From an uncultured Acidobacteriota bacterium (lineage in GTDB: Bacteria > Acidobacteriota > Vicinamibacteria > Marinacidobacterales > SMYC01), in NCBI GenBank assembly GCA_963815675.1, contig CAWFHP010000009.1:248235-312234 (forward strand): a DNA stretch of 64,000 nucleotides. The letters run 5' to 3'. The notes under the pieces are model-generated. The model had not been told where the DNA came from. It did no database searches and saw nothing but the letters and a program-made list of their open reading frames with translations. This document shows positions 2,160 to 31,333 of the stretch, piece after piece. Made by a program: the position numbers and the translations under genes. Position 1 is the first letter of the stretch. Each line of letters begins with the position of its first letter.

Positions 2160-3183
2160 TCACACGGGGTCGGCGAGCTTCAGAAGCTGCTTTCCGAAGT
2201 TCTTGCCGTGGTACAGACCGATGAGCGTCTTCGGTATGTTCTCGAAACCGGTTCGAATATCCTCCGCGAAGCGAATCTTGCCCTCCTTGACCCAGGCGGC
2301 AAGCTGCTCGGTGGCCTCTCCGAAGCGGGCGGCGTAGTCGAGAACGATGAAGCCTTCCATGCGACCGCGCTGGGGTACGAGCCTGAAGTAGTTCTTCGGC
2401 CCGGGTTGCGGCTCACTGGCGTTGTATATGGAAATCGCGCCGCTGAGGACTACCCTTGCGTTTCGGTTGATGCGGGCCAGCGCCGCATCGAGAATCGTTC
2501 CGCCGACATTGTCGAAGTAGACGTCGATCCCCTTGGGGCAGAGCTGGTCGAGCCTTTTTTCCACATCCTCGTTCTTGTAATCGATGACGCCGTCGAATCC
2601 GGCGGTTTCCACAACCCAGCGGCACTTCTCGGGTCCACCCGCGATGCCGACCACCTTGCAGCCCTGGATCCTCGCGATTTGACCCGCCACCGACCCGGTC
2701 GCTCCCGCCGCACCGGAGACCACGACGGTCTCGCCCGACACGGGCTTTCCGATTCTCGAGGAGGCCGAAGTAGGCGGTGAGACCGGTCAGGCCGAGAACG
2801 CCGAGCATCCAGCTCGGGGGCACGCCCTTCGGAACCTTGCTCACGGCAGACTTCGATTCGTCCGAGACCAGGGAGTAGTCCTGCCAGCCGAAAGCCCCTC
2901 GGACGAGCTCGCCGGCCTCGAATCCGCGGCAGTTGGACTCCACGACCTGCGCGACGGCCAGGGCGCGCATCGGCTGGCCGAGAGGAACGGGTGGAACGTA
3001 GCTCGGCCGGTCGCTCATCCATCCCCGCATGGCGGGCTCGAACGACAGTACCAGATTGCGCACCAGCATCTGGCCTTCATCGGGCACTGGTACAGACGTT
3101 TCCCGATACTCGAAGTTCGATTCCCGGACCATGCCTTCGGGACGGGAGACAAGTATCCATTGACGGTTCACACCTTCGGCCAT
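2160..3183 (-). CDS. NADP-dependent oxidoreductase, MDR (zinc-free alcohol dehydrogenase-like / alkenal reductase) family; apparent frameshift near 2750
   Basis: N-half in ORF 2413..3183 (MAEGVNRQWILVSRPEGMVRESNFEYRE...LTAYFGLLE). C-half in ORF 2160..2741 with Rossmann motif VSGAAGATGSVAGQIARIQGCKVVGIAG and the family C-terminus. Confidence 0.7.
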
Positions 3184-7285: not shown

Positions 7286-7380
7286 CCTCCGCGCTCTCCT
7301 GGTTGCCTTTTCTTGCAAAGGCCAAGGCCTCTGCCCGTCGTGTGGGGCGAAGCGAGTCGCCATCTTCTCCTCACTACTCC
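7286..7380 (+). mobile_element. short remnant of an IS91-family transposase zinc-binding domain (about 30 codons)
   Basis: + strand reads LVAFSCKGQGLCPSCGAKRVAIFSSLL. About 80 bp are near-identical to 17911..18005 inside the larger IS91-like fragment. No ORF context remains. Confidence 0.5.
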
Positions 7381-8474: not shown

Positions 8475-9851
8475 TCAGCGGGCCGCGGGCGCCGGTGCCG
8501 GGGTTCGCAGCGGGACCAGCCGCTGCAGCTTCCCCGTCTGGGAGTCGCGAGCGAAGCCGTCGACGGTCCGGACCGAGACCGCGGGCTCGGGCAGCCCGGA
8601 CGCTCTGAGGACCCGCGTCAGCTCCGCCGCGAGGGCCGTGCCGTCGAAGGGGCCGTCCGGCTGGATCTCGACGTCCAGGCCGTCCCGGGTCTGGCGGACC
8701 CGGTAGTCCGCGATGCCCGGCGTCTCGATCACGGGCGAGAGCACCGCCAGCGAGTGGACGCGCGCGCCGTCGTAGACGAAGGTCACGTACGACCGGCCCT
8801 CGACGGTGGCGACGACGTGACCGTGATCCGCCGCGTCCGGCCGGCGCGTGAGGCGGTCTTCCAGCACGTACCGGATGAGCGGCTGCGCGGTGTTGAAGAG
8901 GTTCGTCACCAGGATCCGCGCCGAGGGCGTCCCCGGCGGCACCGGACAGTTCTCCTCGTCGACGAGCTCGACGAGGGCGAGGTCGGTCCCCAGGGTGAAG
9001 GCCTCGGCGCCCGGGAGCCGGCCGCCGATCAGGCCCTCGCTGGTGGCGTAGGTCTCGAAGACCGGCGCCCCGAAGGCGGCGCCGATCTCGGCCTCGACGT
9101 CGCGACTCATCTGCTCGGCTCCCGCCATGATGCGGCGCGGGGCGATCGCCAGCCGCCCGGCCCGCTGCTCGGCCGCGAGGCGGTGGAGGAGGCTCGGGTA
9201 GCCCATGAGCATGTCGGGCCGGGCGTCGTTGAGCCGCTCGACGATCTGCGGAAGGGGCAGCGTGACGGGCGCCGGGACGAGGCGGACGAGCGCGCCGTCG
9301 AGCAAGGAGAAGGTGATCTGCGCGGCATGGGACGCGCTCGGCGCGCTGACCGCCGCCAGTGTCCTCGGGCCGGGCTCCGGGGGGCCGGGGAGCGCCACGA
9401 TCCGTGCGGCGTAGTCGGCCATCGCGTCCTCGCCGTAGACGAACATCCCCTTCAGGCCGGAGCTGCCGCCGGAGCCGATGGCGAGGTAGCGCTCCTCGAG
9501 CGACGCGGGGAGTTCGCCGGTCGCCGCCAGGTGCGCCCCGACCCTCTCGCGGGTGAGACGCCGGTCGGTGACGACCTCGTCGAACGACTCCATCATCTCC
9601 GCCTTGGTCATGACCGGCAGCGAGGCGAGCTCGCCGAGCTCGAAGCGGGAGGGGTCGACTCCCGCCAGGCGGCGCGCGTGGAACGGCGAGTGCTCGATCG
9701 CGTGCGCGAGCAGGTGACGGAGCCGCTCCTGCTGGTGCGCCTCGATCCGACGGCGGTCCCAGCGGAGCCGCTCGAGGTGGACGGGCACCTGCTCCATCAG
9801 CGTCTCCTGGAACCGGCGTCGCAGGTTTTCGAAGCTCTCGTTCACGCTCAT
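8475..9851 (-). CDS. phenylacetate-CoA ligase-like (PaaK / coenzyme F390 synthetase family) adenylate-forming enzyme
   Basis: Internal start MSVNESFENLRRRF (ATG comp 9849-9851) of ORF 8475..10205. AMP-binding-like motif AIGSGGSSGLKGMFVY and PaaK-like architecture. The start overlaps the tetR stop by 4 nt. Confidence 0.8.
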   Translation of the reverse strand: MSVNESFENLRRRFQETLMEQVPVHLERLRWDRRRIEAHQQERLRHLLAHAIEHSPFHARRLAGVDPSRFELGELASLPVMTKAEMMESFDEVVTDRRLTRERVGAHLAATGELPASLEERYLAIGSGGSSGLKGMFVYGEDAMADYAARIVALPGPPEPGPRTLAAVSAPSASHAAQITFSLLDGALVRLVPAPVTLPLPQIVERLNDARPDMLMGYPSLLHRLAAEQRAGRLAIAPRRIMAGAEQMSRDVEAEIGAAFGAPVFETYATSEGLIGGRLPGAEAFTLGTDLALVELVDEENCPVPPGTPSARILVTNLFNTAQPLIRYVLEDRLTRRPDAADHGHVVATVEGRSYVTFVYDGARVHSLAVLSPVIETPGIADYRVRQTRDGLDVEIQPDGPFDGTALAAELTRVLRASGLPEPAVSVRTVDGFARDSQTGKLQRLVPLRTPAPAPAAR

Positions 9852-10477
9852 AGCGGGTCCTCCTCCCTCTCCGGGCTCACGGGCCCCGACTCCGTCCACA
9901 GCAGCCACAACGCGTGGCGCGTCAGCTCGAACGTGGCGCCGGGGTCGCTCACGAGGTTCTCGAGTACGGTGCCGATGTCGAGGATGGCGATGAACCGGCC
10001 GACGTCCTCGGAGCTCCAGCGCGGCGTATGGCCGGTCCTCCGGGCGAGCGCGCGCCCGATCTCGGAGACCCGGTCGAGCGTTCTCGCGTGCAGCGCCGCG
10101 TAGCGGCGGTTGAGGTCGGGCAGCCGAGCGGCGTGGACCCGGAACTCGAGGACGGCCAGCGCCCAGGGAACGTCGGTCTCGCGGGTCGCCCGGGACTGCT
10201 CCCACAGGTCGCGCAGCGCCGCGCCCGGGGGGGCGTCTCGGACCTTCTCGAGCGAGCGGTTCACCCGTCGCTCCATCCGCTGCTCCATGAGGGCGAGGAA
10301 GAGGTCGTCCTTGCTCCCGAACTGGGAGTAGATGACGCCCTTGGAGAATCCTGCCTCCTCGGCGATCTGCTCCAGCGTGGCTCCGTGGAACCCCTTCTCG
10401 CGGAACAACTTTTCGGCCGCATCCAACACCAGGCCCCGATTCCTCGACGACTGCTCGGGGCGCCTGAGCCTCAACAT
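9848..10477 (-). CDS. TetR/AcrR family transcriptional regulator
   Basis: N-terminal HTH LVLDAAEKLFREKGFHGATLEQIAEEAGFSKGVIYSQFGSKDDLFLAL. 209 aa. It heads a three-gene minus-strand operon (tetR-ligase-BASS). Confidence 0.85.
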   Translation of the reverse strand: MLRLRRPEQSSRNRGLVLDAAEKLFREKGFHGATLEQIAEEAGFSKGVIYSQFGSKDDLFLALMEQRMERRVNRSLEKVRDAPPGAALRDLWEQSRATRETDVPWALAVLEFRVHAARLPDLNRRYAALHARTLDRVSEIGRALARRTGHTPRWSSEDVGRFIAILDIGTVLENLVSDPGATFELTRHALWLLWTESGPVSPEREEDPL

Positions 10478-11858: not shown

Positions 11859-12923
11859 GTGACGATCAGGCATCGCGCGAAACCTGCCCTGCTGGCTCTG
11901 TCGTTTGTGGTTCTCACACACCCGCTCGACCTCGCCCAAACGCCGGGTGCCGGTAGCATCGACGGACGCGTTGTGGACGCGACAGGTGCTGCACTCTCCC
12001 AGGCGCGGGTCTCCGTGCTCCACCGCGGCACCGGCCTCGAGCGAAGTCTCGTCACGACGTCCAGCGGGCTCGTTCGGTTTCCTCTTCTTCCGGTGGGGCG
12101 CTATGCGCTGGAAGTATCGCTCGAGGGGGTTCGAGACGCTCCAAAGAAAGGACGTCCTCGTCTCCGTTCCCAGCGAAACCCCAACCGAAACCTGGGTCCT
12201 CCCTTCCGACTACGACGCAAACGGTCGAGGCCTGTACGACGCGCAGGACCGTTTGGACCCTCGCTACGGCGACTTCCAGGTGGAGGAATCGACGGCAAGA
12301 CGGCGCTACACGGCGCTCATCCTCTCGGCGAGACGGCGCTTCAAAAACCGCGTTCAGTTCGAGGCCTACTACACGCTCTCCGAGAACAGGACGGACGACG
12401 ACAACGAGAGAAGCGCGGGCGGGCCTCAAACAGTCAGCCGGAAAACCTCGACGCCGATTGGGCCTTCAGCTTCCTCGACGTTCGCGATCGACTCGTGGCC
12501 AACGGAGTCTTCGAGCTTCCCGGTGGCTTCAGTCTGGGAGCTCTTCTCGCCACGAACACGGGTCGCCCGTTCAACACCCTCATCGGCTCCGACGACAATG
12601 GGGATGGGAACGCCAACGACCGGGCCGTCGTGGATGATTCCAACCGCCAGAAGGTCCTCGACATGGGACTGGATCTCCCGGAGGGCCTCCAGCCGCGCAA
12701 CTCCGGCCGGCAGCCGGGCGTCTTCAACCTCGATCTGCGCGTCGCCAAGAACGTCGAGTTCGGAAAGAAGGGACGAATGGAGCTCATGGTCGAAGTCTTC
12801 AACGTCTTCAACAACGCCAACCGCTTCACCACGAGCAACGTGATCGGCTCGCCCAGCTTCGGGCGCCTTGACTCGGTGGGCACCCCTCGGCAGGTCCAGC
12901 TCGGGGCGCGCTATCGCTGGTAG
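11859..12923 (+). pseudogene. degraded TonB-dependent receptor-like gene (CarbopepD_reg N-terminus + beta-barrel C-terminus, internally deleted and frameshifted)
   Basis: N-terminus has a signal plus a carboxypeptidase-regulatory-like domain (GSIDGRVVDATGAALSQARVSVLHRGTGLERSLVTTSSGLVRFPLLPVGRYALEVSLEG). The C-terminus has barrel strands ending ...QVQLGARYRW. The middle switches to frame of ORF 11905..12843 (RYTALILSARRRFKNRVQFEAYYTLSEN). It is only about 350 codons, versus about 1000 for intact members. Confidence 0.5.
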
Positions 12924-17654: not shown

Positions 17655-18070
17655 ATGGGGAGCCTTGCTCCATCCCTCGGAGCCGTCGCCTGCCCGCCGG
17701 CCGTCTACCGACGAAGGAGACCGCGCGCCACCTCGCTCTATCAGCTCCTCGAGACCTACTATGGGCGCCTCAAAGGCCTATGGGAGGAGCGTTTCGAGCG
17801 ACGCTTCGGCTTCTGGCGGGGCTTCTACGACACCGCCGTCCTGAGGTATCTCGACTGCGGGCTCTTCGAGTCGGGCTTCGCCCGCGCCGTTTGTCCGAAG
17901 TGTCGTTTCGAGTTCCTCGTCGCCTTCTCCTGTAAAGGCCGGGGACTCTGCCCGTCGTGTGGGGCGAATCGAGCCGCCATCTTCTCCTCACTACTCCACG
18001 AAAGGATTCTCGCCGACGTCCCGCACGCCCAGTGGGTTTTTGCTTTACCCAAGATGCTTCCCTGCGTAGG
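17655..18070 (+). mobile_element. N-terminal fragment of an IS91-family (Y2 HUH) transposase: zinc-binding domain plus first residues of the catalytic domain, truncated
   Basis: YQLLETYYGRLKGLWEERFERRFGFWRGFYDTAVLRYLDCGLFESGFARAVCPKCRFEFLVAFSCKGRGLCPSCGANRAAIFSSLLHERILADVPHAQWVFALPKML matches the IS91 TnpA N-terminus (CxxC...LVAFSCKGRGFCPSCGGRR...VPxRQWVxxLP). Similarity ends after about 120 codons. Confidence 0.6.
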
Positions 18071-18369
18071 ACAGCGCCCGTCCCAGGTCTCGTTCTCGAA
18101 TCGCGCGCCGGAAACCCTTGAGCTTGAGCTCGAGCTCGTGCAGGAGAGCTTCATAGTCAAGCGAGGAAGGAGGTTTTCTTGGCACCGCCCGTCTCCAGAC
18201 GAGACCGAATGGGCCGCAATCTACACTCGAATCGGATGGCGTGCCACCCGCGGGCATTTCCGTCGTGCGTCGACTCTCCTCGAAGGAGAAAAGATCCGGG
18301 GAGTCCGCAGAACCGGGGCGGAAGGACAAATCAAGGGCGCGGGACTCCCGCTCGGTTAGAACCCCGAAC

Positions 18370-20321
18370 TCAGCGCTTCAGTGCCGACGTAAGGCTTCGA
18401 GCGAGGGCCTCCAGGAGGAAGGGCTTCTTCAGAAAGGCCGCCTCCACCCGATCCACGGGCCGCCTCTGCGGTTGGTGAGCATCGTAGCCGCTCACGAGGA
18501 TCACGCTCGGCGGGTGAGGCAGGGTGCGGATGAGAGCGAGCGTGTCCTCACCGCTCAGGCCCGGCATCGTCATGTCCAGGAGCACGACATCGAATGCCTC
18601 GGGCTCCGACGACAGCACGGCGAGCGCCTCGTCGCCGTTGGTCGCGGTCGAGGCCGCGAGCCCCAGCTGTTCGATCATCTCGACCGTGACCCGGCGGACA
18701 GTCTCCTCGTCGTCCACCACCAACACTCTGGTGCCGGGAGCGAACGACTCCACCGATTCCCCCGGTCCGGTCCCCGCCGCCGCCGGTTGGGGTTTCACCT
18801 CGACCGCCGGAACGGCGAGGAGCAGTACCCGGACCCGGGTTCCCCGGCCCGGAGCGCTCTCCACTTCGATTCGAGCCTCCGTGCCCGCGAATGATGCCCT
18901 GGACCGCCGCGAGTCCGAGGCCGTGCCCCGAAAACTTCGTGGTGAAGAACGGATCGAAAATACGCGCGCGGGTCTCATCGTCCATGCCGCAGCCGTCGTC
19001 GGTGACTTCGATGGCGGCATACGCAGCCGGCCCGGCGCTTGCCTCCCGTACCGACTCGACTTGCCGGGTCCGGAGGGAGACCGTGCCGCCACGCTCGTCG
19101 ATGGCGTCCGAAGCGTTGGTGATCAGATTCATCACGACCTGCTGGATCTGGGCGGCGTCGCCTTTGGCGGTAGGGCGTCCCGGGTCCAGGTCGATGTCGA
19201 GCGAGACGTTCTTCGAAATGCTGATTCGCAGGAGTCCGGCCATCTCTTCGATGAGCTCGTTCAGGGGAATCGGCTCGACGACGAACCGACCGCGTCCGGA
19301 ATAGGCCAGCAGCTGGTTCGTCAGATTCCGACGCCCGCTGAGCGCTCAGCCGCAGTCGTTCGAGAAAGGTGCGCAGCCGGCCCTCCTCCGGCACCTCGTG
19401 GAGTGCGAGCTCCGCATTGCCGAGGATGCCGACGAGGAGATTGTTGAAGTCGTGCGCCACGCCGCCGGCGAGAAGCGCGAGCCCCTCCATCTTCTGCGCC
19501 TCGCGGAGGCGCTCCTCGAGCTGACGATGCGTCGTGATCTCCATCGCGGTGCCGATGGTCCCCACGATGGTGCCGTCGGCGTCCCGGAGCGGATCGAGAG
19601 AGCAGGTGAACCGGTATCTCCCGAAGCTCGTCTCGTAACGCTGCGGTTCTCCCTCAAGCGCACGTCTGTGGCGAGGAAGGTCTTCGTGATCTCCCAGGTA
19701 CTCGGAGACGGTCAACCCCACCACTTGATCGGGAGCGAGCCCGAGAATCGCGAGACCCTTTCCCTGGGACGAAGTGAAACGAAGCTCACGGTCCGTCGAC
19801 CAGACGATGGCGGGCACCTGTTCGTAGACGACGCGCAACTGGGAGTTGCTCCGGGCGAGCTCGTCCCGGCTCTCGCGAAGGCGCTGCTCGGCGTCCCGAT
19901 GAGAGGTGACGTCGGTCGCGAAGACGATGAAGCTCGACCCGCGCCCGTACGGGTCGCCGATGCCGTGGACGTGCAACGACGCCGCAATAACGCTCCCGTC
20001 CCTGCGGTGTAGACGCACATCGGCTCCGGACGCCGCGCCCCCGGCAGCCCGGGCAAAGAGCTCCTGGCAGTCGCCGGGATCGACGATGACGTCCCGGTTC
20101 GCGTTGAGGGTGAGCATCTCCTCGGCCGAGTCGTAACCGAGCAGCCCGACGAAAGCTCGGTTCACGAACAGGTAGCACCCGTCGATGGTGATCAGGAACA
20201 CGCCGAAAGGTGCGGCGTCGAAGAGGATCTTCAAGTCGGGGGCGCTGAAACCGGCTTCGAGCGACCCCGTCGGCCCGAGAGACGGAGTCGGCGAGACCGC
20301 GGGATGGTCCGCGGAACCCAT
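18370..20321 (-). CDS. hybrid sensor histidine kinase (PAS-PAS-HisKA-HATPase_c-REC); two apparent frameshifts (~19300, ~18600)
   Basis: ORF 18975..20321 has two PAS domains and H-box GGVAHDFNNLL. ORF 18548..19243 has HATPase_c (DAAQIQQVVMNLITNASDA...GHGLGLAAVQGI). ORF 18370..19092 has the HATPase end plus a receiver (VLVVDDEETVRRV...VLLDMTMPGLSG). Confidence 0.75.
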
Positions 20322-21016: not shown

Positions 21017-22793
21017 TCAGCCGCGAGCCGTGAGCCCGTTCCGGATCTCGCGGCAGCGCTTCAGGCGCGCCGGGGCGGGAACCCTCCCATAGACGGATTC
21101 CGCGGCGTCGAGCTCGAGCTCGGCCGCCTCCGGATCCGAATCGAGAAGAATCTCCGCGAGACGCACCCGGATTTCCGCCGCGCTCAAACAGGCCTCCATC
21201 TCCGTCCAGATCCGGAGCGACCGGCGAATCTGTCCTATCGCGTCCTCCGCCCGTCCCATCGCGAGAGCGAGCTCTCCCCGCGCTCGGAAGACGATCGCCT
21301 GAAACGCGGGAGTAGACCAGAGCTCCGGATGCGCGTCCAGCTCCGCGAGCGCCTTGCTCGCGCGGCCGGGCTCACCCGCGAGCGCGGCGGCGATGGCGAG
21401 ATGGGCGAGGAGCGAGCCTCGCCGCTGCTGGTGCGTCCAATCGGTGTCGCCGACCGCCCGCTCGAGGCTTCGCACTGCAGCCTCGACCCGTCCCCGTTCG
21501 AGCAGCAGCAGCGCCCAGCCGGGCTGCGGCTCCCAGCCGAGCTCGTGAGCGCGTCGAAACGCCGCTTCCGCCCCGTCGAGCTCTCCTTTCGCGAGCTGGA
21601 TACTCACCGAGGACGCGCAGCGCATCGCCCTCGGCCCAGGGTGCGCTCTCCGCGAGCTGCGCCGCGGCCTCCGTCACTTCCCCTTCGGCTTCGCCGAGCT
21701 CACCACGAAGTGAGAGGACCTCCGCCCGGTGGAGCCGACAGAGCCCGGTCATGCTCCCGAGACCGTGACTCGCGCACCAGCGCCCGAACTGATTCGTCCA
21801 CTCCGCCGCGCGCCGCCAGTCGCCGCGGTTGAGACTGGCCCAGATGACTCCACAGTACACGAGGCCGCCCGACCAGGGAGTGACACCACCTCCGAGCACC
21901 GCCGCCGCCGCCTCGTCCTGAAGGTCGTTCCCGCGGTGCACGTCGCCAATCGCGAGCAGAGACAGTCCCCAATAAAGAAGCCCGAGCGCTTCGACGTCAG
22001 CGTCCTTTCGGGACGCCCCGATTCGATAGGCCTCCTCGCCGAAGGCGGCCGCCTGCTCGAGCTTCCCTTCGATGAGCGCGACACGGCCCGAGCCCCACTG
22101 CACGAGACCATGCTCCGGCGATTCGGGCACGTCGCGCAGGTAGCTCGCGGCGCGCTGGAGCCAGCCCCGCGCCACCGCCATCTCCCGTCGCTCCAAGTGG
22201 ATCTGGGCGAGCGCCGCGGCGGCACGCGCCGCGCCCCGGCAGTTCTCCCGGTCGAGATAGGCGCGGACGGCGCGCTCGAGCGGCCCGACGGCGGAGCCCG
22301 GCTGTCCCGCGCACACGGCGGCTTGCGCGAATCGCTCGAGCTCGGCGGGGACGAGCGGCTTCTCGCGCTCGGCCCTCTCGAACTCGCGAACCGCGCTCCG
22401 CCAGTCGCCTTCCTCAGAAGCCCGCCGTGCCCCCGCGAGCGGATCTCCTTCAGCCCGCGCGTTCTCCATGGGGGCTTCGATTTCCGGTTCCGGGCGAGCT
22501 TCCTGGACGAAGCGGTATCCCTGGCGGGTGTAATTGCGGATGGACCCCTCACAGCCTCCGCGGCGAAGCGCGGCGCGCGCGAGGCTTACGGCCCGATGGA
22601 GAGACCCTTCGCCGACGTTCACGCCGCGCCAGAGCGTCTCCAGGAGCTCGGCGTTGGGCACCACCCGCTCGCGGTTCCGCACCAGGTAGAAGAGAAGCTC
22701 CAGCACCCGTGGTTGCAAGTCGAGGGCGTCGCCGTCCAGCCGGAGCTCCCGCGTCTCCTCGTCCAGTTCGAACGTTCCGAATCGATGGATCAT
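21017..22793 (-). CDS. SARP/AfsR-like regulator: OmpR/PhoB-type winged helix + BTAD/TPR-like helical repeat domain; apparent frameshift near 21610
   Basis: Start MIHRFGTFELDEETRELRLDGDALDLQPRVLELLFYLVRNRERVVPNAELLETLW...YRF (ATG comp 22791-22793). A long Ala/Leu-rich TPR-like region follows, continued in ORF 21017..21625. Confidence 0.7.
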
Positions 22794-22886
22794 CGCTTCC
22801 GTCCGCCCATGATAAGCGTTTGATAAGAATCCGGAAAGGTGCGCTCTTCCCGTTCCTGCGTAATCTCGCATGAAGGAGACAACGAC

Positions 22887-23186
22887 ATGAACACATACGT
22901 GATTCGCAGGAAGGGAAACTGGGCGACGCCCAAGGAGCTGGAAGCCACCGCCGCGGTCTCGACTCGCGTCGGAAACGAGATGCCGGACCAGGTAAAGTGG
23001 ATCCGCTCCTACGTCGTGGAGGAACCGGACGGCCGCCTCGGCACCGTCTGCATCTACCAGGGCAAGGACGTCGAATCGGTGCGCGAGCACGCCCGGCGCG
23101 CCGGCATGACGGCGGACGAGATCATCCCCGTGGGAGACACGGTGGTGGTTCGCGAGGACCCGAAGCCGAACGCGAACGGGAATTGA
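22887..23186 (+). CDS. DUF4242-family small protein
   Basis: MNTYVIRRKGNWATPKELEATAAVSTRVGNEMPDQVKWIRSYVVEEPDGRLGTVCIYQGKDVESVREHARRAGMTADEIIPV. AGGAG lies 8 nt upstream of the ATG. About 100 aa, with the DUF4242-like pattern. Confidence 0.55.
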   Translation: MNTYVIRRKGNWATPKELEATAAVSTRVGNEMPDQVKWIRSYVVEEPDGRLGTVCIYQGKDVESVREHARRAGMTADEIIPVGDTVVVREDPKPNANGN

Positions 23187-23905
23187 CGTGTCCGGGAGGT
23201 TGCCGGCGCGTTGGTCCGTCGCGCCGGCAGCCTCGTCGTCAGACGTGCGCCGTGAGCTCTCTGAACGCTTGCGGCCGGCCCTCCACCAGATTGAGGAGAA
23301 CGTCGGTCATCATCGGCGTTCGCTTGAAGGCCTCCGTGCCAGCGGCGTCGTGCGGAGCGCATACGACGGCGGCGACACCGGCGCCGAAGGCCACTTCGCC
23401 GACACCGCGTGGTCGCATGGGTGTCGACGGGTCGGGCAAATCGACGGCGTCGGCGCGCATGTTCAGCGGAACGTCGAGGAACGTGGGCGGCCAGCGAGGG
23501 CCGAAGCGGTTGGGGGAGGTCAGATAGCTCGATAGCTGCGAATTCTCGGGGAGGCAGAGCGCGCGATCCTCCGAGAGGCCCCGGGTGAGCTCACCAACTC
23601 TCCCACTCCAGCAAGACACTTACTCGCCCGGATTCTGGCGCGCGCGCACTTCGGGAAGGAATCGAGACCGAAGCGCGCGCTCCCGAAGGCGAGCCAGGCG
23701 TTCTTGTCGAGATGGTCGGCACGACGCGTTCAATGGCGAGCTTTCTATGACGCGGTTCAGGCAGATGGGTTTCTTCCACCCGCTACATCGTCGACGTTCG
23801 TCACGGGGTCGCAACGCGACGCCATCGGGGGAGCCCTCCATCGACGCGACGCCCCTCGGGAAAAATCTACAAAAGAAATCTTCGATCCCGAGCGAGTGAA
23901 TATTC

Positions 23906-23986
23906 CTACCGACGGTTGTAGTAGAAGCCGCCGCCGCCGAAAAGAAGGACCAACACGACAATCAAGAGAAGCATACTAGTACTCAT
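23906..23986 (-). CDS. candidate 26-aa hydrophobic micro-protein (MSTSMLLLIVVLVLLFGGGGFYYNRR)
   Basis: ATG (comp 23984-23986) has GAAAGG 8 nt upstream. It lies in an AT-rich patch with locally AT-rich codons. It has a single TM-like helix with a Gly4 stretch. It is below the 60-aa ORF-track threshold. Confidence 0.25.
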   Translation of the reverse strand: MSTSMLLLIVVLVLLFGGGGFYYNRR

Positions 23987-24369
23987 GGCTCTAACCTTTC
24001 TGTTCTGTGAAAACGCCACTGTCTAAGCCCCCGGCCCGCCGCGAGACGGCTCGAGGCCGGCGCTCTCACCAAGGACAGTAGCAATGACTGTGCCATGACA
24101 GAGCTCTTCGCCTCCAGGGGGGGAACTCGCGAGCTTCTTCCACTCCGGCGTACGCAGAGAGCGCCTCGGCGGGAATGGCGCCGCCGCGGGCTTCTCGCCC
24201 CAGGGCGACCAGCTCGGCTACAGCGCCGACTACATCGGCGAGCCCCACCAGCGCGGCTCGCCACCACCGCAAACTGAGCGCTTCCTCTCGAAGTCACGCT
24301 GGCTGTCTGTCCGCGAAACCATCCTATCCCGCAATTGCCTTCTTCACGCCCCAACAAGCCTGGGTCCTC

Positions 24370-24560
24370 TCCCACCGAGTCATGTCGCTTCCGCGGAGGC
24401 CCTGGTCCGACGGCACCACCCACATCATCTTCATCTTCATCGAGCTCATGCCAAATGCTGGTTGCGCTGGTGTTTCCGCCGGGGTTCAATCGCTTGCGCT
24501 ACCAGGGTGTACTTGCACCGCGCGCTCGTCTTCGCCCGATGGTGATCCCTGCGCCGTTAA
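24370..24560 (+). mobile_element. C-terminal fragment of an IS91-family transposase (frameshifted remnant)
   Basis: + strand reads ...RPWSDGTTHIIFIFIELM, then in a neighbouring frame LVALVFPPGFNRLRYQGVLAPRARLRPMV. Both match the conserved IS91 TnpA C-terminus (...DGTTHVVFEPLEFIxRLAALVPxPRxNLxRYHGVLAPN...). No upstream catalytic core is present. Confidence 0.5.
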
Positions 24561-24809
24561 CGGATCAGGTCCGCGCCGTCGAGGATCCTGGAGCCCGCAC
24601 TCAGGCGGAGGTCTCGAGGCTAGCCGAGCTGTTGGACCGGGGGGAGCAAACCATCTTCGAAATCGGCGGCCGCGTCGGTGTGCTTCGCAACGAAAACATG
24701 CTACCATACACTTTCCTTACAATTTCTTTCTGCGGTGTCATGTCGATGAGCGACGGCGCCCCGTGGCAGTCCGGCGGAGGGGTTTCGGACGAAACAGCAA
24801 GAAGGGCGC

Positions 24810-27800
24810 ATGGCAAAGCGAACTCCGGCACGCGCGCAAAGGAAGCCCCGCAGAACACCCCCACTGAGCAAGGCGTCCACCGGCATCCACGGACTGGACG
24901 AGCTGACCGGTGGAGGTTTGCCCCGGGGACGGCCGACCCTCCTGTGCGGTAGCGCCGGCTGCGGCAAGACGCTCATGGCCATGGAGTTCCTGGTGCGGGG
25001 CGCCCTGGACTCCGGCGAACCGGGCGTCTTTATGGCCTTCGAGGAGAGCGACGAGGAGCTGACCACCAACTTCGCTTCACTCGGTCACGATCTGTCAGCG
25101 TTGGTGGCCAACAAGAAGCTGTCGATCGACTTCGTTCGGGTCGAGCGCAGTGAGATGGCTCAGACGGGCGAGTGCGACCTGGAAGGGCTCTTCATCCGCC
25201 TGGGACACGCCATCGACAGCATCGGCGCGAAGCGCGTGGTGCTCGACACCATTGAGGTGCTGTTCTCCGGGCTGCCCGACGCGGCCCTCCTGCGCAGCGA
25301 GCTGCAGCGCCTCTTTCGCTGGCTGAAGGCCCGGGGGATCACGGCGATCATCACCGCCGAACGGGGCGAGACCGCCCTCACCCGCCATGGGCTGGAGGAG
25401 TACGTCGCCGACTGCGTGATCCTCCTCGACCACCGCGTGGAGGGCCAGATGGCCACGCGCCGGCTGCGCATCGTCAAGTACAGAGGTTCCACCCACAGCG
25501 CCAACGAGTATCCGTTCCTGATCGACGAGGGCGGCATCTCGATCCTGCCCCTCACATCGGCGAGGCTGGAGCAGAAAGCGGGGGTCGCGCGCGTGTCCTC
25601 GGGCGTTCCGCGCCTGGACGCGATGATGGGGGGCAAGGGCTACTATCGGGGCAGCACCGTCCTGGTCTCCGGCACCGCGGGCTCGGGCAAGACGAGCCTG
25701 GCCGCGCATTTTGCCGCCGGAGCCGCCGAGCGGGGCGAGCGCTGCCTGTGGTTCTCCTTCTACGAATCGTCGAGCCAGATCATCCGCAACATGCGCTCCA
25801 TCGGCATCAACCTGGCGCCGGCGGTGCGGCGCGGGACGCTGCGTATCGAAGCGGAGCGGTCGACGATCTGGGGCCTGGAGATGCAGCTCGTCACCATCCA
25901 CAAGTTGGTGAACGAGTTCAAGCCGAGCATCGTCATCATCGACCCGGCCTCGGCTTTCGCCACCCTCGGGAGCGAGGCGGACGTCAAGGCGATGATGACG
26001 CGGCTGATCGACTTCTTCAAAGTGCAGGGCGTCACCGCGTTGATCACGAGCCTCACCGGTGGTGACGCGACTTTGGAGAGCACCGAGGTGGCCATTTCGG
26101 CGTTGATGGACACCTGGCTGTTGCTGCGGGACGTCCACAACGGCGCGGAGCGCAACCGGGTGCTGCACCTGGTGAAGTCGCGAGGGATGAAGCACTCGAA
26201 CCAGGTCCGCGAGTTCCTGTTGACGGACCACGGGGTGGAGCTGCGGGACGTGTATGCCGGGCCTTCGGGCGTGCTGCTCACCGGGAGCGCGCGCGGGGCG
26301 CTGGAGGCGCAGGAGAAGGCCCAGACCCTGCTGCACGGGCAGGAGACGCAGAGCAAGAGGCACAACCTGGAGCGCAAGCGCCAAGCCATGGAGGCGCAGA
26401 TTGCCGTGCTGCGGGCGAAGTACGAGGTCGAGGAAGCGGAGGCGGCGAGGACCATCGGTCAGGACCAGACACGTGCCGGGGTGTTGGCCGGTGACCGGGT
26501 GCGCATGGCCCGCGAGCGGCAGTCCGACAAGAGGGCGGCGCCGGAAAGGCCGGCGAAGCGCCGAGGGGATCAGCATGAAGCCCAAGTCGACAAGCCGGCT
26601 CGGCCAAGGCAAAGAGGCACGAAGCCCGCGAAGGGGCCCGAGTACATCCTGCGCCTGTACGTGGCGGGCATGACACCGCGCTCCACCCGCGCCATCGCCA
26701 ACATCAAGGAGATCTGCGAGGGGCGTCTGAAGGGGCGCTACGACCTCCAGGTGATCGACCTCTACCAGCACCCGGAGCTTGCCGCGGAGGAGCAGATCGT
26801 CGCCCTGCCCACGCTGATCAGAAAGCTCCCGCAGCCCCTGCGCCGGATGGTAGGCGACCTCTCCGATCTCGAAAAGGTTCTGATCGGGCTGGAACTGCGG
26901 GCCGGCCTTGACGGGAGCCGTGGCTTGATGAAGAAACGTCGTTCCGGGGCTGCGCTCGACACGGAAATGGACGTCCTCCGCACCCGGCTGGCCACCGCCG
27001 AAGAGGACCTGCGCGCCATCCGCAGTGGCGACGTGGACGCTGTGCTGGTCACGGGCGAGCGCGGCGACCAGGTCTTCACTCTGACGGGAGCCGACCGGGC
27101 GTATCGTCAACTCGTCGAGACGATGGGCGAGGGCGCGGCGACGCTCTCCGCGGACGGCGTCATCCTCTATTGCAACGACTGCCTGGCCATGATGCTGGGA
27201 CGACCGCTCGACCAGGTGATCGGCAGTGCACTGCGCAGATGGCTACCGCCCGCGGACCACCAGGCCCTTGCCGAGCTGCTCCTCAGAGCGCGCACGGAGA
27301 CCGCCCGCACGGAGATCGCCCTGGTGACCGCCGGGGGCACCGCGATGCCCGTGTACCTATCGGCTTCCCACCTGAGTCCAGACGGAGCCGAGACGGTGAC
27401 CTGCCTCGTGCTGACCGACCTGACAGCACAGCGACATCTCGAGAAGGTCGCCGCGGCGGAGCAGTTGGCCCGCTCCATCCTCGAACAGGCCGCCGAGGCC
27501 ATCGTGGTATGCGACATCGAGGGCCGCGTCACACGCGCGAGCCTGGTGGCCGAACAGCTCTGCGACGGCGGTCTGCTACGGAGGCCTTTTGCCGAAGCCT
27601 TTCCCCTGCAGACCCCGGACGCCCAAGCCTTCAATCTCATCTCCGTTCTGAAGGGGGAGACGTTGCGCGACGTGGATGTCGCCTTGCGTCAGCAGGGACG
27701 GGAGCTTGCCCTCATGGTGAGCGCGCGTCCGCTCGTCAGGGACCAGGAGATCTTCGGCTGCGTCATCACCTGGACCGACATCACCGCGCGCAAGCGGGTG

Positions 27801-29721
27801 GAGGACGACCTTCGCAAGAAGGATTTCCTGCTATCGGAAGCGCAGCGCCTCGGCTCGGTCGGAAGTTGGTACTGGGACCTCGTTGGTCCCATGACGTGGT
27901 CGGATGAGACGTATCGCGTCTACGGTGTGGAGTCGGACACCTTCGAGCCGACCGTGGAGAACCTGGTCGGCCTGATCCACCCCGAGGACCGGCCGACGAT
28001 GCAGGCCTGGATCGGTGCCAGTATCGGGGGCGAGCAGCCCTCCGAGCTGGCGTTTCGGATCAATCCGCCGGACGGCACCACCCGCCATGTGCTGGGTCGC
28101 GGCGAGGTGGCCCTCGACGCCGCGGGCCAGCCGGCCTATATGGCCGGCACCGTGCAGGACATCACCGAGCGAATGCAGGCGGAGCAGACCCTCCGCCTGC
28201 AAGGGCGCCGCGCTGAATGCCGCCGCCAACGCCATGGTCATCACCGACCGCAACGGTGTCGTCGAGTGGAGCAACACGGCGTTCTCCAAGCTGAGCGGCT
28301 ACAGCGCCGAGGAGAGCCTGGGGATGCGCCTTTGGGGCGCGGCACAGACGGATGCCGATGCCGCGACGGTCGCGTCGGACGAGGAGATGTGGGCGGCCAT
28401 CCTCGCCGGAAGCGTCTGGCGCGGCGAGGTGACGAGTCTGCGCAGAGACGGCAGTCGGTACCTCCAGGAACGGACCGTCACACCCGTGAAAGACGAGCGC
28501 GGAGTGATCGCGCACTTCATCGCGATCAAGGAGGACCTGACGGATCGCCGCTTCCTGGAGAGCCAACTCCAGCAATCCCAGAAGATGGAGACGGTGGGGC
28601 AGCTCGCCGGCGGGGTCGCCCACGACTTCAACAACCTCCTCACGGTCATCAACGCGACCGCCGACCTCGCGGCCGAGGGTCTGCCGGAGGGCGATCCCCT
28701 ACGTGAGGAGTTCCGTGAGATCCGACTCGCCGGCGAACGGGCGGCAACGCTGACGCGTCAGCTCCTGGCCTTCAGCCGCAAGCAGGTGCTCCAGCCCGCG
28801 GTGCTGAATGTGAACACGGTGGTGGTGAACATGGAGCGGATGCTGGGCCGCCTGATCGGCGAGAACATCCTGCTGGAAATCAGGCCGACTCCGGATCTCG
28901 GGAACGTCAAGGTGGATGCCGGGCAGCTCGAGCAGGTCGTGATGAATCTGGTGGTGAATGCCCGCGACGCCATGCCCGATGGGGGCACGTTGATCGTGAC
29001 GACGCGCAACGTCACGCTCGACGCCGCCTACGCCGCCGGCAACCCTACCAGCACGCCGGGCCCCCATGTGTTGTTGGCGATCTCCGACACCGGCTCGGGC
29101 ATGGACGAGGCGACCCGACGGAAAATCTTCGAACCGTTCTTCACCACCAAGGACGTCGGCAAGGGCTCGGGATTGGGCCTGTCCACCGTGTTCGGAATCG
29201 TCAGACAGAGCGGTGGCAGCATCGAGGTCTACAGCGAAGTGGGCAGGGGTACGGTGTTCAAGGTGTACCTACCTCTGGTGGACGCCCCGGAAGCGGTCTC
29301 GTCCGCCGGCGCAGCGAGCCCAGCTCACGGCACGGAGACCATCCTCGTCGTCGAGGACGATGCGGCGGTGCGCCGGGTGGCCACGCGCGTCCTGCGCGCA
29401 GCGGGCTACACGGTATTGACCGCCAACAACGGCATGGCTGCGCTGGCCTTGCTCGCGTCACAGGGTGGCGCCGTGCACCTGGTGCTCACGGACATGGTGA
29501 TGCCGAAGATGGGCGGCCTGGAGCTGGCGGCCCGGCTCAAGGAGCTTCGGCCGGACCAGAAGGTCTTGTTCACGTCCGGTTATACCGATGACACCATGCG
29601 GCTCGGTGGGCGACCCGACATAGCCGCCCAGTTCATCGGCAAGCCCTACACCGGGGTGGAGCTGACGCGCAGGGTCCGGGACGTGCTCGACCTCGAGGTC
29701 GCGGGGCAACCAATGCCGTAG
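24810..29721 (+). CDS. KaiC-KaiB-PAS(x3-4)-HisKA-HATPase_c-REC fusion protein (about 1,640 aa); single apparent frameshift near 28200
   Basis: ORF 24810..28706 has KaiC-type duplicated RecA/P-loop domains (GIHGLDELTGGGLPRGRPTLLCGSAGCGKT and GVPRLDAMMGGKGYYRGSTVLVSGTAGSGKT, catalytic FEES, DxxG). A coiled-coil/basic linker follows. Then a KaiB-like segment EYILRLYVAGMTPRSTRAIANIKEICEGRLKGRYDLQVIDLYQHPELAAEEQIVALPTLIRKLPQPLRRMVGDLSDLEKVLIGLEL. Then PAS domains. The frame of ORF 28015..29721 continues with a PAS domain, H-box QLAGGVAHDFNNLLTVI, HATPase_c (GSGLGLSTVFGIV) and a receiver (ILVVEDDAAVRRV...LVLTDMVMPKMGG). Confidence 0.85.
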
Positions 29722-30033
29722 TGCTTTCCGTGGCAACCAATGGAGATATGCGCAAGAGCTGTGTTTGAGCAGCTGACCATCGGGTGAGCGTTCCCGTTCC
29801 TTCGACGAATCCTCCCACTCGGCGAGCTCGCCATCAGGCTCGTCGACCGAGCCGCTGAAGAGTGCCGCCGATTGTCGACCACTCGAAGGGATAGGCGGCT
29901 CTAAGCCGAGCGGATGCTAACGGTCAGGAAGTTTCCTCTCAGCACTGCCCGTCGCGGGGTGAAATGTGCTTGGCCTGGGGACTGGCGGCACAGCATGGGG
30001 GATGCAGGGATGGAGTTGCCATGGCCCGCCGCG

Positions 30034-30639
30034 CTATTGGCAGAACGAGTACGTCTCGCGGATCGGGCAGGGCTCGGGCTCGCCGAACGGGGTTGCCGTT
30101 CGTGGGCAGCCTCGGTTGCCGGCGACAACTCCGGTCGGGATCCCGATCCACGAAGGGGCTTCGGGGCCGAGCCACCGCGACGGCGTCGCCCGATAGCAGT
30201 AGTCCACGACGCTCGTTACCGAGGCGCCTTCTGGCGGCGCCGGACGCCTGTCTCGTCCGACCCACTCGCGTGTCATGAAGTCTTTCGCGTACGGACTCCG
30301 CCGCGCGAGGTCGCGGTCGAGAAAGTCCGGTTCGTCCGTCGGGTAGTCCGGGATGCCGATCCCCTTGCATTCCGGACCTCGAGCGCAGAGGTGCTGCAGC
30401 TCATCGAAATAGCCCAGGTTGGCCGCCGAGTAGTTTTGCTCCGCGCTTAGCACGGCGCGAGTATCCGCGACCGCGCTGGCGCTCGCGGACGATTCCGCCC
30501 AACGCTGAAGCGTCACCTTGCTTATCGCGAGCAGAGCTCCGGCGAGACCAAGGAGAACGGCGGCGACGATCAAACACTCGAGCGCGCTCCGCGGCTTGCC
30601 GTATTCCTCCAACATGTTTTGGTCATATGCAAGAGTCAT
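30034..30639 (-). CDS. prepilin-type N-terminal domain (type IV pilin / pseudopilin-like) protein, atypical N-terminus
   Basis: KPRSALECLIVAAVLLGLAGALLAI hydrophobic helix followed by a pilin-like SAVADTRAVLSAEQNYSAANLGYFDELQHLC. It lacks the canonical G-F-T-L-I-E cleavage motif, so the call is tentative. Confidence 0.4.
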   Translation of the reverse strand: MTLAYDQNMLEEYGKPRSALECLIVAAVLLGLAGALLAISKVTLQRWAESSASASAVADTRAVLSAEQNYSAANLGYFDELQHLCARGPECKGIGIPDYPTDEPDFLDRDLARRSPYAKDFMTREWVGRDRRPAPPEGASVTSVVDYCYRATPSRWLGPEAPSWIGIPTGVVAGNRGCPRTATPFGEPEPCPIRETYSFCQ

Positions 30640-30880: not shown

Positions 30881-31333
30881 TTACAATCCGCTCAGTGCCC
30901 GGAGTCTCGCATCCACGGCGAGAGCATCGTCGTCGCCGCGGCAGATGAGAAGGATGGTGTCGTCGCCCGCGATCGTTCCCATCACCTCGGGCCACTCCAC
31001 TTCGTCGATCGCGCGCGCCACCCCGTTTGCGTTTCCCGGCGGGGTCTTGACCACGACGAAGTTCTTGGCGGTCTCGATGCCGGTGACGAAGGCCATGACG
31101 GGCGCGAGCGGTCCTTCGGCGGCCGTCGCCCCCGCGACGTAGCGATAGCCGCCGCGGCCGTCGGGGGCCTTTCCCACCCCGAGTGCCTTGAGCTCGCGGG
31201 AGAGAGTCGATTGCGTCATGGCCATCCCCGCGGTCTTGAGCTCGTCGAGGAGCTCGTTCTGGTTACGAATCGCTTTGTCGCGAATGAGGGTGAGTATGAG
31301 CTCTTGCCGGCGTCCTCGGTCGGCCGCCATCAA
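30881..31333 (-). CDS. argR: arginine repressor ArgR
   Basis: N-terminal wHTH LIRDKAIRNQNELLDELKTAGMAMTQSTLSRELKALG and C-terminal oligomerisation/arginine-binding domain (...GTIAGDDTILLICRGDDDA...). 150 aa. Confidence 0.85.
   Translation of the reverse strand: MMAADRGRRQELILTLIRDKAIRNQNELLDELKTAGMAMTQSTLSRELKALGVGKAPDGRGGYRYVAGATAAEGPLAPVMAFVTGIETAKNFVVVKTPPGNANGVARAIDEVEWPEVMGTIAGDDTILLICRGDDDALAVDARLRALSGL

Follow-up and report, generated by a model that had tools for sequence, protein, structure and literature searches.

We analysed a 64,000-nucleotide (nt) stretch of an uncultured Acidobacteriota genome (GCA_963815675.1, contig CAWFHP010000009.1, positions 248,235–312,234 of the forward strand; hereafter the window), in which a long gene fusing KaiC, KaiB and histidine-kinase domains is preceded by the decayed remains of an insertion sequence (IS). 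The plus strand at 24391–24685 codes for a stretch of about 100 residues from the conserved C-terminal part of an IS91/ISCR rolling-circle transposase. This confirms the first-pass annotation of the window, which had placed an IS91-family transposase remnant ahead of the KaiC gene. The fragment is truncated at both ends, carries insertions and deletions (indels) and lies in a variable zone of the genome. Very probably it is a non-functional internal piece of the transposase gene (tnpA) of an ISCR-like member of the IS91 family (HUH, rolling-circle), left behind by rearrangement. The further proposal, that an IS91 element mobilized the KaiC gene, finds no support here, and the mechanism of such elements speaks against it. 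The features concerned are the following.

24391–24444, plus strand: relic segment A, frame +1, RRPWSDGTTHIIFIFIE; about residues 349–368 of ISVsa3 TnpA and positions 248–267 of our hidden Markov model (HMM) profile.
24445–24454, plus strand: 10-nt insertion, ctcatgccaa, after which the relic continues in frame +2 instead of +1.
24455–24685, plus strand: relic segment B, frame +2, MLVALVFPPGFNRLRYQGVLAPRARLRPMVIP...SRLAELLDRGEQTIFEIGGRVGVL; ISVsa3 residues 371–453.
24722–24770, no strand: junction interval, from the last trace of the relic to the first base common to the KaiC orthologue loci.
24810–29721, plus strand: KaiC-KaiC-KaiB-PAS-PAS-HisKA-HATPase-REC fusion gene, delimited with Pfam and by alignment to two orthologous loci (L014 and L059).

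Reading 24100–24810 in the three forward frames gave RRPWSDGTTHIIFIFIE in frame +1 at 24391–24444 and, in frame +2 from 24455, a peptide that begins MLVALVFPPGFNRLRYQGVLAPRARLRPMVIP and reads MLVALVFPPGFNRLRYQGVLAPRARLRPMVIPAPLTD. After frame repair, the relic peptide matched positions 143–178 of the 183 in Pfam Y2_Tnp (PF04986; E = 6e-4; 20.3 bits, marginally under the gathering cut-off of 20.9) and positions 362–416 of the 509 in NCBIfam ISCR_clade_Ia (E = 1.2e-9). It is also matched by three metagenomic Y2_Tnp proteins, the best at 51% identity (E = 4.7e-10), and by more than 5,000 plasmid IS91/ISVsa3 (ISCR2) genes at 35% identity over 88% of the query (E = 1e-9). When the TnpA of ISVsa3 (reference sequence from a Phaeobacter plasmid) was searched against the window with tblastn, residues 352–368 aligned to 24400–24450 and residues 371–453 to 24458–24685, so that residues 352–453 are covered at 35% identity. 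A custom HMM of 392 positions, made from 20 full-length relatives that were gathered in an exhaustive search starting from the best match, recovered both segments (24391–24450 and 24455–24634; profile 248–331, E = 1.3e-10), with segment B occupying profile positions 269–331 (E = 1.8e-10). Three independent searches reach E of about 1e-10, and the signature of the Y2_Tnp C-terminal block (DGT.H...L..L.P.PR..L.RY.G.LAP) is present, with E down to 1e-10.

In the form common to the relic and its ISCR relatives, this signature reads DGTTH...LxALVPxPRxNLxRYHGVLAP, and the relic matches the ISCR-like clade with LAALVPPPRxNLxRYHGVLAP at E = 1e-17. The full-length relatives score far higher on ISCR_clade_Ia than on the IS91 equivalog model, and their 300–408 bits on the former lie well below its curated cut-off of 925; they thus form an uncharacterized environmental clade rather than a named ISCR. 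Our searches also redraw the limits of the remnant. It had been assigned to 24370–24560, 250 bp from the KaiC gene, but similarity reaches about 24685 and fades between there and 24721, to which a weak extension is possible, leaving about 90–125 bp to the ATG at 24810. Nor is it the extreme C terminus of the transposase, as first described; it is the penultimate conserved block, about residues 350–455 of about 500.

The relic is indeed split over two frames, as had been noticed, and the cause is a 10-nt insertion together with a 3-codon deletion, not a single-base slip. Removal of the insertion gives FIEMLVALVFPPGF, collinear with LIEMLSVLIPPPRF of protein P0003, and the 3-codon (9-nt) deletion in segment A leaves TTHIIF---IFIE where homologues have TTHVIFEPLDLIA; the placement of the insertion is ambiguous by a few bases. 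Because neither is a homopolymer slip, the frame break is genuine decay and not a read error. In segment B, the CxxCGG of the zinc ribbon has decayed into FEIGGR. There is a negligible probability that the similarity arose by chance, or that assembly or sequencing errors disrupted an otherwise intact gene. Nearby genes do contain single-base frameshifts suggestive of long-read errors, and the Pfam score is slightly under its gathering threshold. However, four independent searches at E 1e-9 to 1e-10 refute this explanation, the first 350 residues have no coding sequence in any frame, and indels of 10 and 9 nt are unlike homopolymer slips.

In IS91 the order of parts is terIS, orf121, tnpA, oriIS (PMC13181058); in ISCRs, the terIS region lies upstream of the start codon and holds the rcr promoter, and oriIS lies downstream (PMC13393415). 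Upstream of the relic, the catalytic core is missing, as the first-pass annotation had stated. HMM positions 1–247 are unmatched in any frame, and with them the HUH motif and the catalytic tyrosine(s). Nor is there a Zn-binding domain (PF14319) joined to a catalytic domain: upstream of 24391 no frame gives a match, and the one Zn_Tnp_IS91 domain, 6.3 kb away, is that of another subgroup. Neither the custom HMM nor tblastn with the 20 full-length relatives found transposase core in 23000–24400 or the whole window, and the central transposase region was not found anywhere in the window by tblastn with the same relatives. A terIS end with its palindrome is also lacking, as the 5′ part of the element is gone and 23990–24390 has no homology or notable repeats.

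The downstream side is similarly truncated. The YHGVLAP motif ends at 24520 and is followed in full-length relatives by 93–127 residues (median 103), whereas only 83–96 codons are available between the motif and the KaiC module (24771) or its ATG (24810); the transposase tail and the whole oriIS end must therefore be gone. No uninterrupted frame runs through CxxCGG to a stop, and every full-length relative has a longer tail. Judged by structure and space only, there is no oriIS end with a subterminal palindrome and 4-nt target. No oriIS/terIS-like hairpins, inverted repeats or flanking direct repeats were found around 24300–24900 and 29650–30300, and no inverted repeats or stable hairpins at 24300–24900 or 29650–30200; the hairpins that the earlier annotation had advised looking for are not present at 24560–24810 or beyond 29721. 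Folded as DNA, 24640–24810 is less structured than shuffled sequence (z = +2.46), and 29722–29900 gives z = −0.8. The junction interval (24722–24770) is relatively AT-rich, without a hairpin or a sigma-70 consensus match, there is no Rfam match or tRNA, and a search for terminators gave nothing relevant. With about 20% of the transposase gene surviving, the relic is a dead, non-functional internal tnpA fragment, truncated on both sides.

The neighbouring KaiC fusion gene reads as two open reading frames (ORFs; 24810–28706 and 28015–29721) through one extra G near 28190. At about 28185–28195 the window has caagggcgc, and L014 and L059 have caa-agcgc; frame breaks also occur in the orthologues L014, L059 and L004. 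The KaiC frameshift may stem from an error in long-read assembly and need not mark a pseudogene, and the single-base frameshifts in its neighbours may have the same origin. A scan of one genome per species yielded 80 related loci in other species. The closest, L014 and L059, share 85% amino-acid identity with the window gene and have flanks unrelated to those of the window. The fusion also occurs at 70–76% amino-acid identity in metagenome-assembled genomes labelled Thermoanaerobaculia, Anaeromyxobacter, Solirubrobacteraceae, Lentisphaerae and Kiritimatiellia, and at 51–63% in cyanobacteria and methanogens (loci L002–L081).

What these genomes have in common is the gene alone. The window, L014 and L059 are 86–90% identical in nucleotides within the coding sequence and, for L059, its ribosome-binding site, but nowhere else; the unit common to other genomes is confined to 24771–29705, homology with L059 starting at 24771. 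The three KaiC units have no terminal sequences in common, and synteny through KaiC homologues in GTDB genomes shows unrelated flanks even in the 85% orthologues. A comparison of base composition, of the kind that the first-pass annotation had put forward as a check, gave no outlier: the composition of the KaiC gene is typical of the window (GC 0.67 versus 0.64 ± 0.03; GC at third codon positions 0.82–0.85 versus 0.78 ± 0.05; 36 other window ORFs). A plasmid search for KaiC returned distant kaiC-kaiB-kinase operons only, with no IS91 link.

We weighed the proposal that an IS91/ISCR element brought the KaiC gene by one-ended rolling-circle transposition and then decayed to a 3′ remnant. The relic and the gene are adjacent and, as stated when the proposal was made, on the same strand. 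A strain 96% identical to the window has no KaiC gene at this site, and the gene is patchy and cross-phylum, at 70–87% identity with unrelated flanks. Co-mobilization of flanking DNA is moreover known for IS91-family elements, in which failure to terminate at terIS in one-ended transposition carries adjacent DNA along (PMC13181058). However, the geometry is the reverse of what this mechanism produces: the KaiC gene is 3′ of tnpA, on the oriIS side, whereas co-mobilized DNA is that beyond terIS, 5′ of tnpA (PMC13181058, PMC13393415). An oriIS would not fit and hairpins are absent, the unit common between genomes is a bare coding sequence without shared ends, and its composition is unremarkable. 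By tblastn and HMM, 0 of the 80 KaiC-fusion loci have a recognizable IS91-type transposase gene within 10 kb. The gene was found neither beyond a terIS nor recurring beside the same IS elsewhere. With the gene on the wrong side of tnpA, no room for oriIS, no hairpins and no recurrence, delivery as IS91-mobilized cargo is very improbable.

The exceptions among the 80 loci are two short crumbs, about 7 kb downstream of KaiC and on the opposite strand, in the two closest orthologue loci.

L014, 21942–22199, minus strand: crumb of about 36 residues, conserved IS91 block PRFNTVRYAGVLAA.SKWR.
L059, 21508–21669, minus strand: crumb of about 36 residues, the same conserved block, PRFNTVRYAGVLAA.SKWR.

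The two crumbs are 69% identical, and the genes between KaiC and the crumb are unrelated. Their identity to the window relic is 43–50%, versus 59–66% for database proteins. We considered and rejected the idea that they are kin of the window relic or are separated from KaiC by the same genes.

The relic might instead have been co-opted, its 3′ part providing the KaiC gene with a 5′ leader or an outward promoter in the manner of the ISCR1 oriIS end, where POUT promoters drive downstream genes (PMC13393415, PMC6218425). Besides this precedent, the relic is co-oriented with the KaiC gene and ends 90–125 bp before its ATG, and the last 120 bp are relatively AT-rich for the genome. On the other hand, 23500–30300 contains no sigma-70-like site, the oriIS region in which POUT resides in ISCR1 is missing, and the KaiC orthologues of L014 and L059 have no such upstream sequence. 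By analogy with ISCR1 a regulatory role would be conceivable, but no evidence in the sequence speaks for it and we think it very unlikely; the relic appears to be intergenic filler with no demonstrable present function.

The surroundings of the relic were compared with those in relatives by using argR, to the right of the KaiC gene, as an anchor. Its product has its best named matches in Vicinamibacteria. Three relatives (L165, L166 and L167) were found in this way; thiD as an anchor in JGI metagenomes returned only relatives at ≤60% identity and was uninformative.

30881–31333, minus strand: argR, first gene of a conserved block (argR, moaD, moaE, thiD onward) that runs past the 41-kb position.
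L165: ArgR 88% identical; collinear from about position 41.2 kb to the argR 3′ end (30888); beyond it, formamidase and outer-membrane protein genes.
L167: ArgR 80% identical; collinear from about position 41.6 kb to the argR 3′ end (30924); beyond it, toxin–antitoxin, helicase and RNase H-like genes.
L166: sister strain, 96% identical in nucleotides over 4 kb; homology to 29864, without 30017–30604; beyond it, unrelated DNA.

Beyond argR, no two of L165, L167 and the window agree. In the sister strain homology breaks off at 29864, 143 bp beyond the KaiC stop codon, and the unrelated DNA to the left of this breakpoint opens a signal-peptide gene on the other strand, with no KaiC; the KaiC gene is therefore not at that position in this strain. 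Judged from these four genomes, each with different content to the left of argR, the region is a plasticity zone. Comparison of strains and species thus favours the view that the KaiC gene was recently gained or lost. The gene is outside the conserved core, is missing at this site in the 96%-identical strain and is shared with other genomes as a bare coding sequence at 86–90% identity with different flanks, all of which indicates horizontal exchange; its acquisition or loss by that route is plausible, and probable. As further details of this zone, L167 has BrnT, HepT and DUF4926 toxin–antitoxin genes and a helicase/MZB and RNase H-like pair at the equivalent place, and the 30017–30604 segment missing from L166 is most of the ORF at 30034–30639.

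A history that would account for the dead tnpA fragment begins with an ISCR-like element inserting long ago in a hypervariable stretch beside argR, in a Vicinamibacteria-like acidobacterium; the best database identity, now 51%, and the multiple indels are signs of the age of the relic. Later rearrangements would have removed about 1050 bp of 5′ coding sequence (the 5′ 70%, with the Zn finger, HUH motif and catalytic Tyr) together with terIS and, on the other side, the last 10–40 codons and the oriIS end, while the surviving remainder of tnpA gathered indels. The KaiC fusion, in the same variable zone, was probably gained here or lost in relatives by horizontal exchange. The right-hand cut of the relic falls where the KaiC segment joins it, and because this junction cuts into the former transposase gene, it would have formed after the IS inserted. 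Either the KaiC segment entered the dead IS or landed beside it, or a deletion fused the two; in neither case would the IS have been the deliverer.

Several points weigh against this account. The order of events is inferred from geometry rather than observed. The 3′ limit of the relic is fuzzy (24685–24770) and the tail lengths of homologues vary, which leaves a little room for a very short-tailed transposase. The L166 contig is a short metagenomic one, the end of which could be chimeric, and we did not find where the variable zone ends on the left. Finally, an IS91 relic lies within about 7 kb in 3 of the 3 closest KaiC loci (the window, L014 and L059) versus 0 of the 78 others; this is probably a lineage effect rather than a link to KaiC.

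Two further pieces of IS91 debris surfaced in the window in the tblastn run that mapped the relic.

17655–18063, plus strand: N-terminal relic, Zn_Tnp_IS91 domain, about 136 residues, truncated after ...VFALPKML.
7297–7380, plus strand: 84-bp crumb, LLVAFSCKGQGLCPSCGAKRVAIFSSLL, from the same N-terminal Zn-finger coding region.

The former, an intact-looking domain, opens an ORF at 17655–18359 (plus strand; Zn_Tnp_IS91, Pfam E = 1e-13), which continues after about 18063 as unrelated read-through, and an independent short-read contig that is 99.8% identical (L082) holds the same truncated ORF. The latter has 88% DNA identity to 17914–17997 and is intergenic, flanked by a CARDB-domain gene and an SBF transporter gene. 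The N-terminal relic is 72–89% identical to its subgroup, in which no intact copy was found among 120 database matches, all of ≤238 residues. Many database relatives (P0154, P0155, P0157 and P0169) stop at residues 137–138 with the same non-homologous end, ...HAQWVFTLWTQ(L); this common ending suggests a truncated derivative of the subgroup that has itself spread. Copies on long contigs (L083, 5001–5983; L084, 5001–6311) are internal-deletion derivatives in which the N-terminal 168 residues are joined straight to the C-terminal 170, or in a similar layout. Their C termini are of the type EFLARVLIH.PEP.KHLVRFYGAYANRVR and have no BLASTP match to the 24.4-kb relic.

These pieces raise the question of whether the 17.7-kb N-terminal and 24.4-kb C-terminal relics are halves of one transposase, split by a 6.3-kb insert consisting of the intervening histidine-kinase and regulator genes. 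Both are on the plus strand in N-to-C order, and together they lack the central core only. However, the subgroup of the N-terminal piece has C termini of the form ...HLVRFYGAYANRVR... (L083 and L084), the very ones that BLASTP does not match to the 24.4-kb relic, which fits the LAALVPPPRxNLxRYHGVLAP clade instead (E = 1e-17). Decay is also very unequal, with best database identities of 89% and 51%. A single split gene is thus very improbable indeed, and we rejected the 17.7-kb N terminus as the missing half because the subgroups differ. At least two IS91-family lineages have thus left wreckage in the 64-kb window, where such debris is common.

Other genes in the left 30 kb look similarly decayed. 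At 11859–12923 (plus strand), a TonB-type outer-membrane protein has an internal deletion that leaves a CarboxypepD_reg N terminus and the last 200 of 838 barrel positions; at 2160–2741 (minus) there is an ADH_zinc_N domain alone, and at 8475–10205 (minus) a partial AMP-binding enzyme. A PAS-PAS-HisKA/receiver hybrid kinase (18370–20321, minus) and a regulator with winged-helix and TPR domains (21017–23090, minus) are each spread over two overlapping ORFs in different frames, the cause being either indels introduced by sequencing or a series of pseudogenes within the variable zone. Adjoining the relic-containing intergenic region on its left, an ORF at 23906–23986 (minus) has a good ribosome-binding site and would be a small membrane-protein gene, its product a hydrophobic peptide of 26 residues, MSTSMLLLIVVLVLLFGGGGFYYNRR.

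In itself the relic matters little: pseudogene fragments of this well-known IS family are routine. Together with the two other IS91 relics and the truncated genes, it serves as a marker that the 30 kb to the left of argR are decaying and strain-variable, and the KaiC-KaiB-PAS-kinase-receiver fusion resides in that variable zone, outside the conserved core. An ISCR-like element could still have helped to assemble the island if a circular intermediate of tnpA plus KaiC had integrated by recombination and oriIS had later been deleted, the relic perhaps becoming a KaiC promoter or leader. By analogy with ISCR1 complex integrons, such integration would put cargo 3′ of tnpA. No repeated flanking segment able to mediate recombination was found around the relic and KaiC, and we give this route very little credence; were it true, IS91-type elements would spread timing or signalling modules among soil Acidobacteria and neighbouring phyla.

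Among known systems, the closest likeness is to ISCR2 (ISVsa3) and ISCR_clade_Ia, with which the relic shares the alignment of residues 352–453 and the signature. Unlike ISCR elements, it has no Zn finger, HUH motif, catalytic Tyr, terIS or oriIS, and it lies in an acidobacterial chromosome, whereas ISCRs are found on a proteobacterial resistance plasmid or integrative and conjugative element. With IS91, IS801 and IS1294, which undergo one-ended transposition, the relic shares a transposase superfamily; in those elements DNA beside terIS, 5′ of tnpA, is mobilized, whereas in the window the putative cargo is 3′ and neither end is present. Complex class 1 integrons with ISCR1 resemble the window in having a co-oriented gene right after the 3′ end of the transposase, but there an intact oriIS with promoters lies between rcr and the cargo, a segment absent from the window. 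As for the KaiC gene, the window fusion is 42–47% identical to consecutive kaiC, kaiB and HWE/PAS kinase genes in plasmid operons of Cereibacter sphaeroides and Rhizobium; in those plasmids the three genes are separate, whereas in the window and about 80 environmental genomes they form one reading frame.

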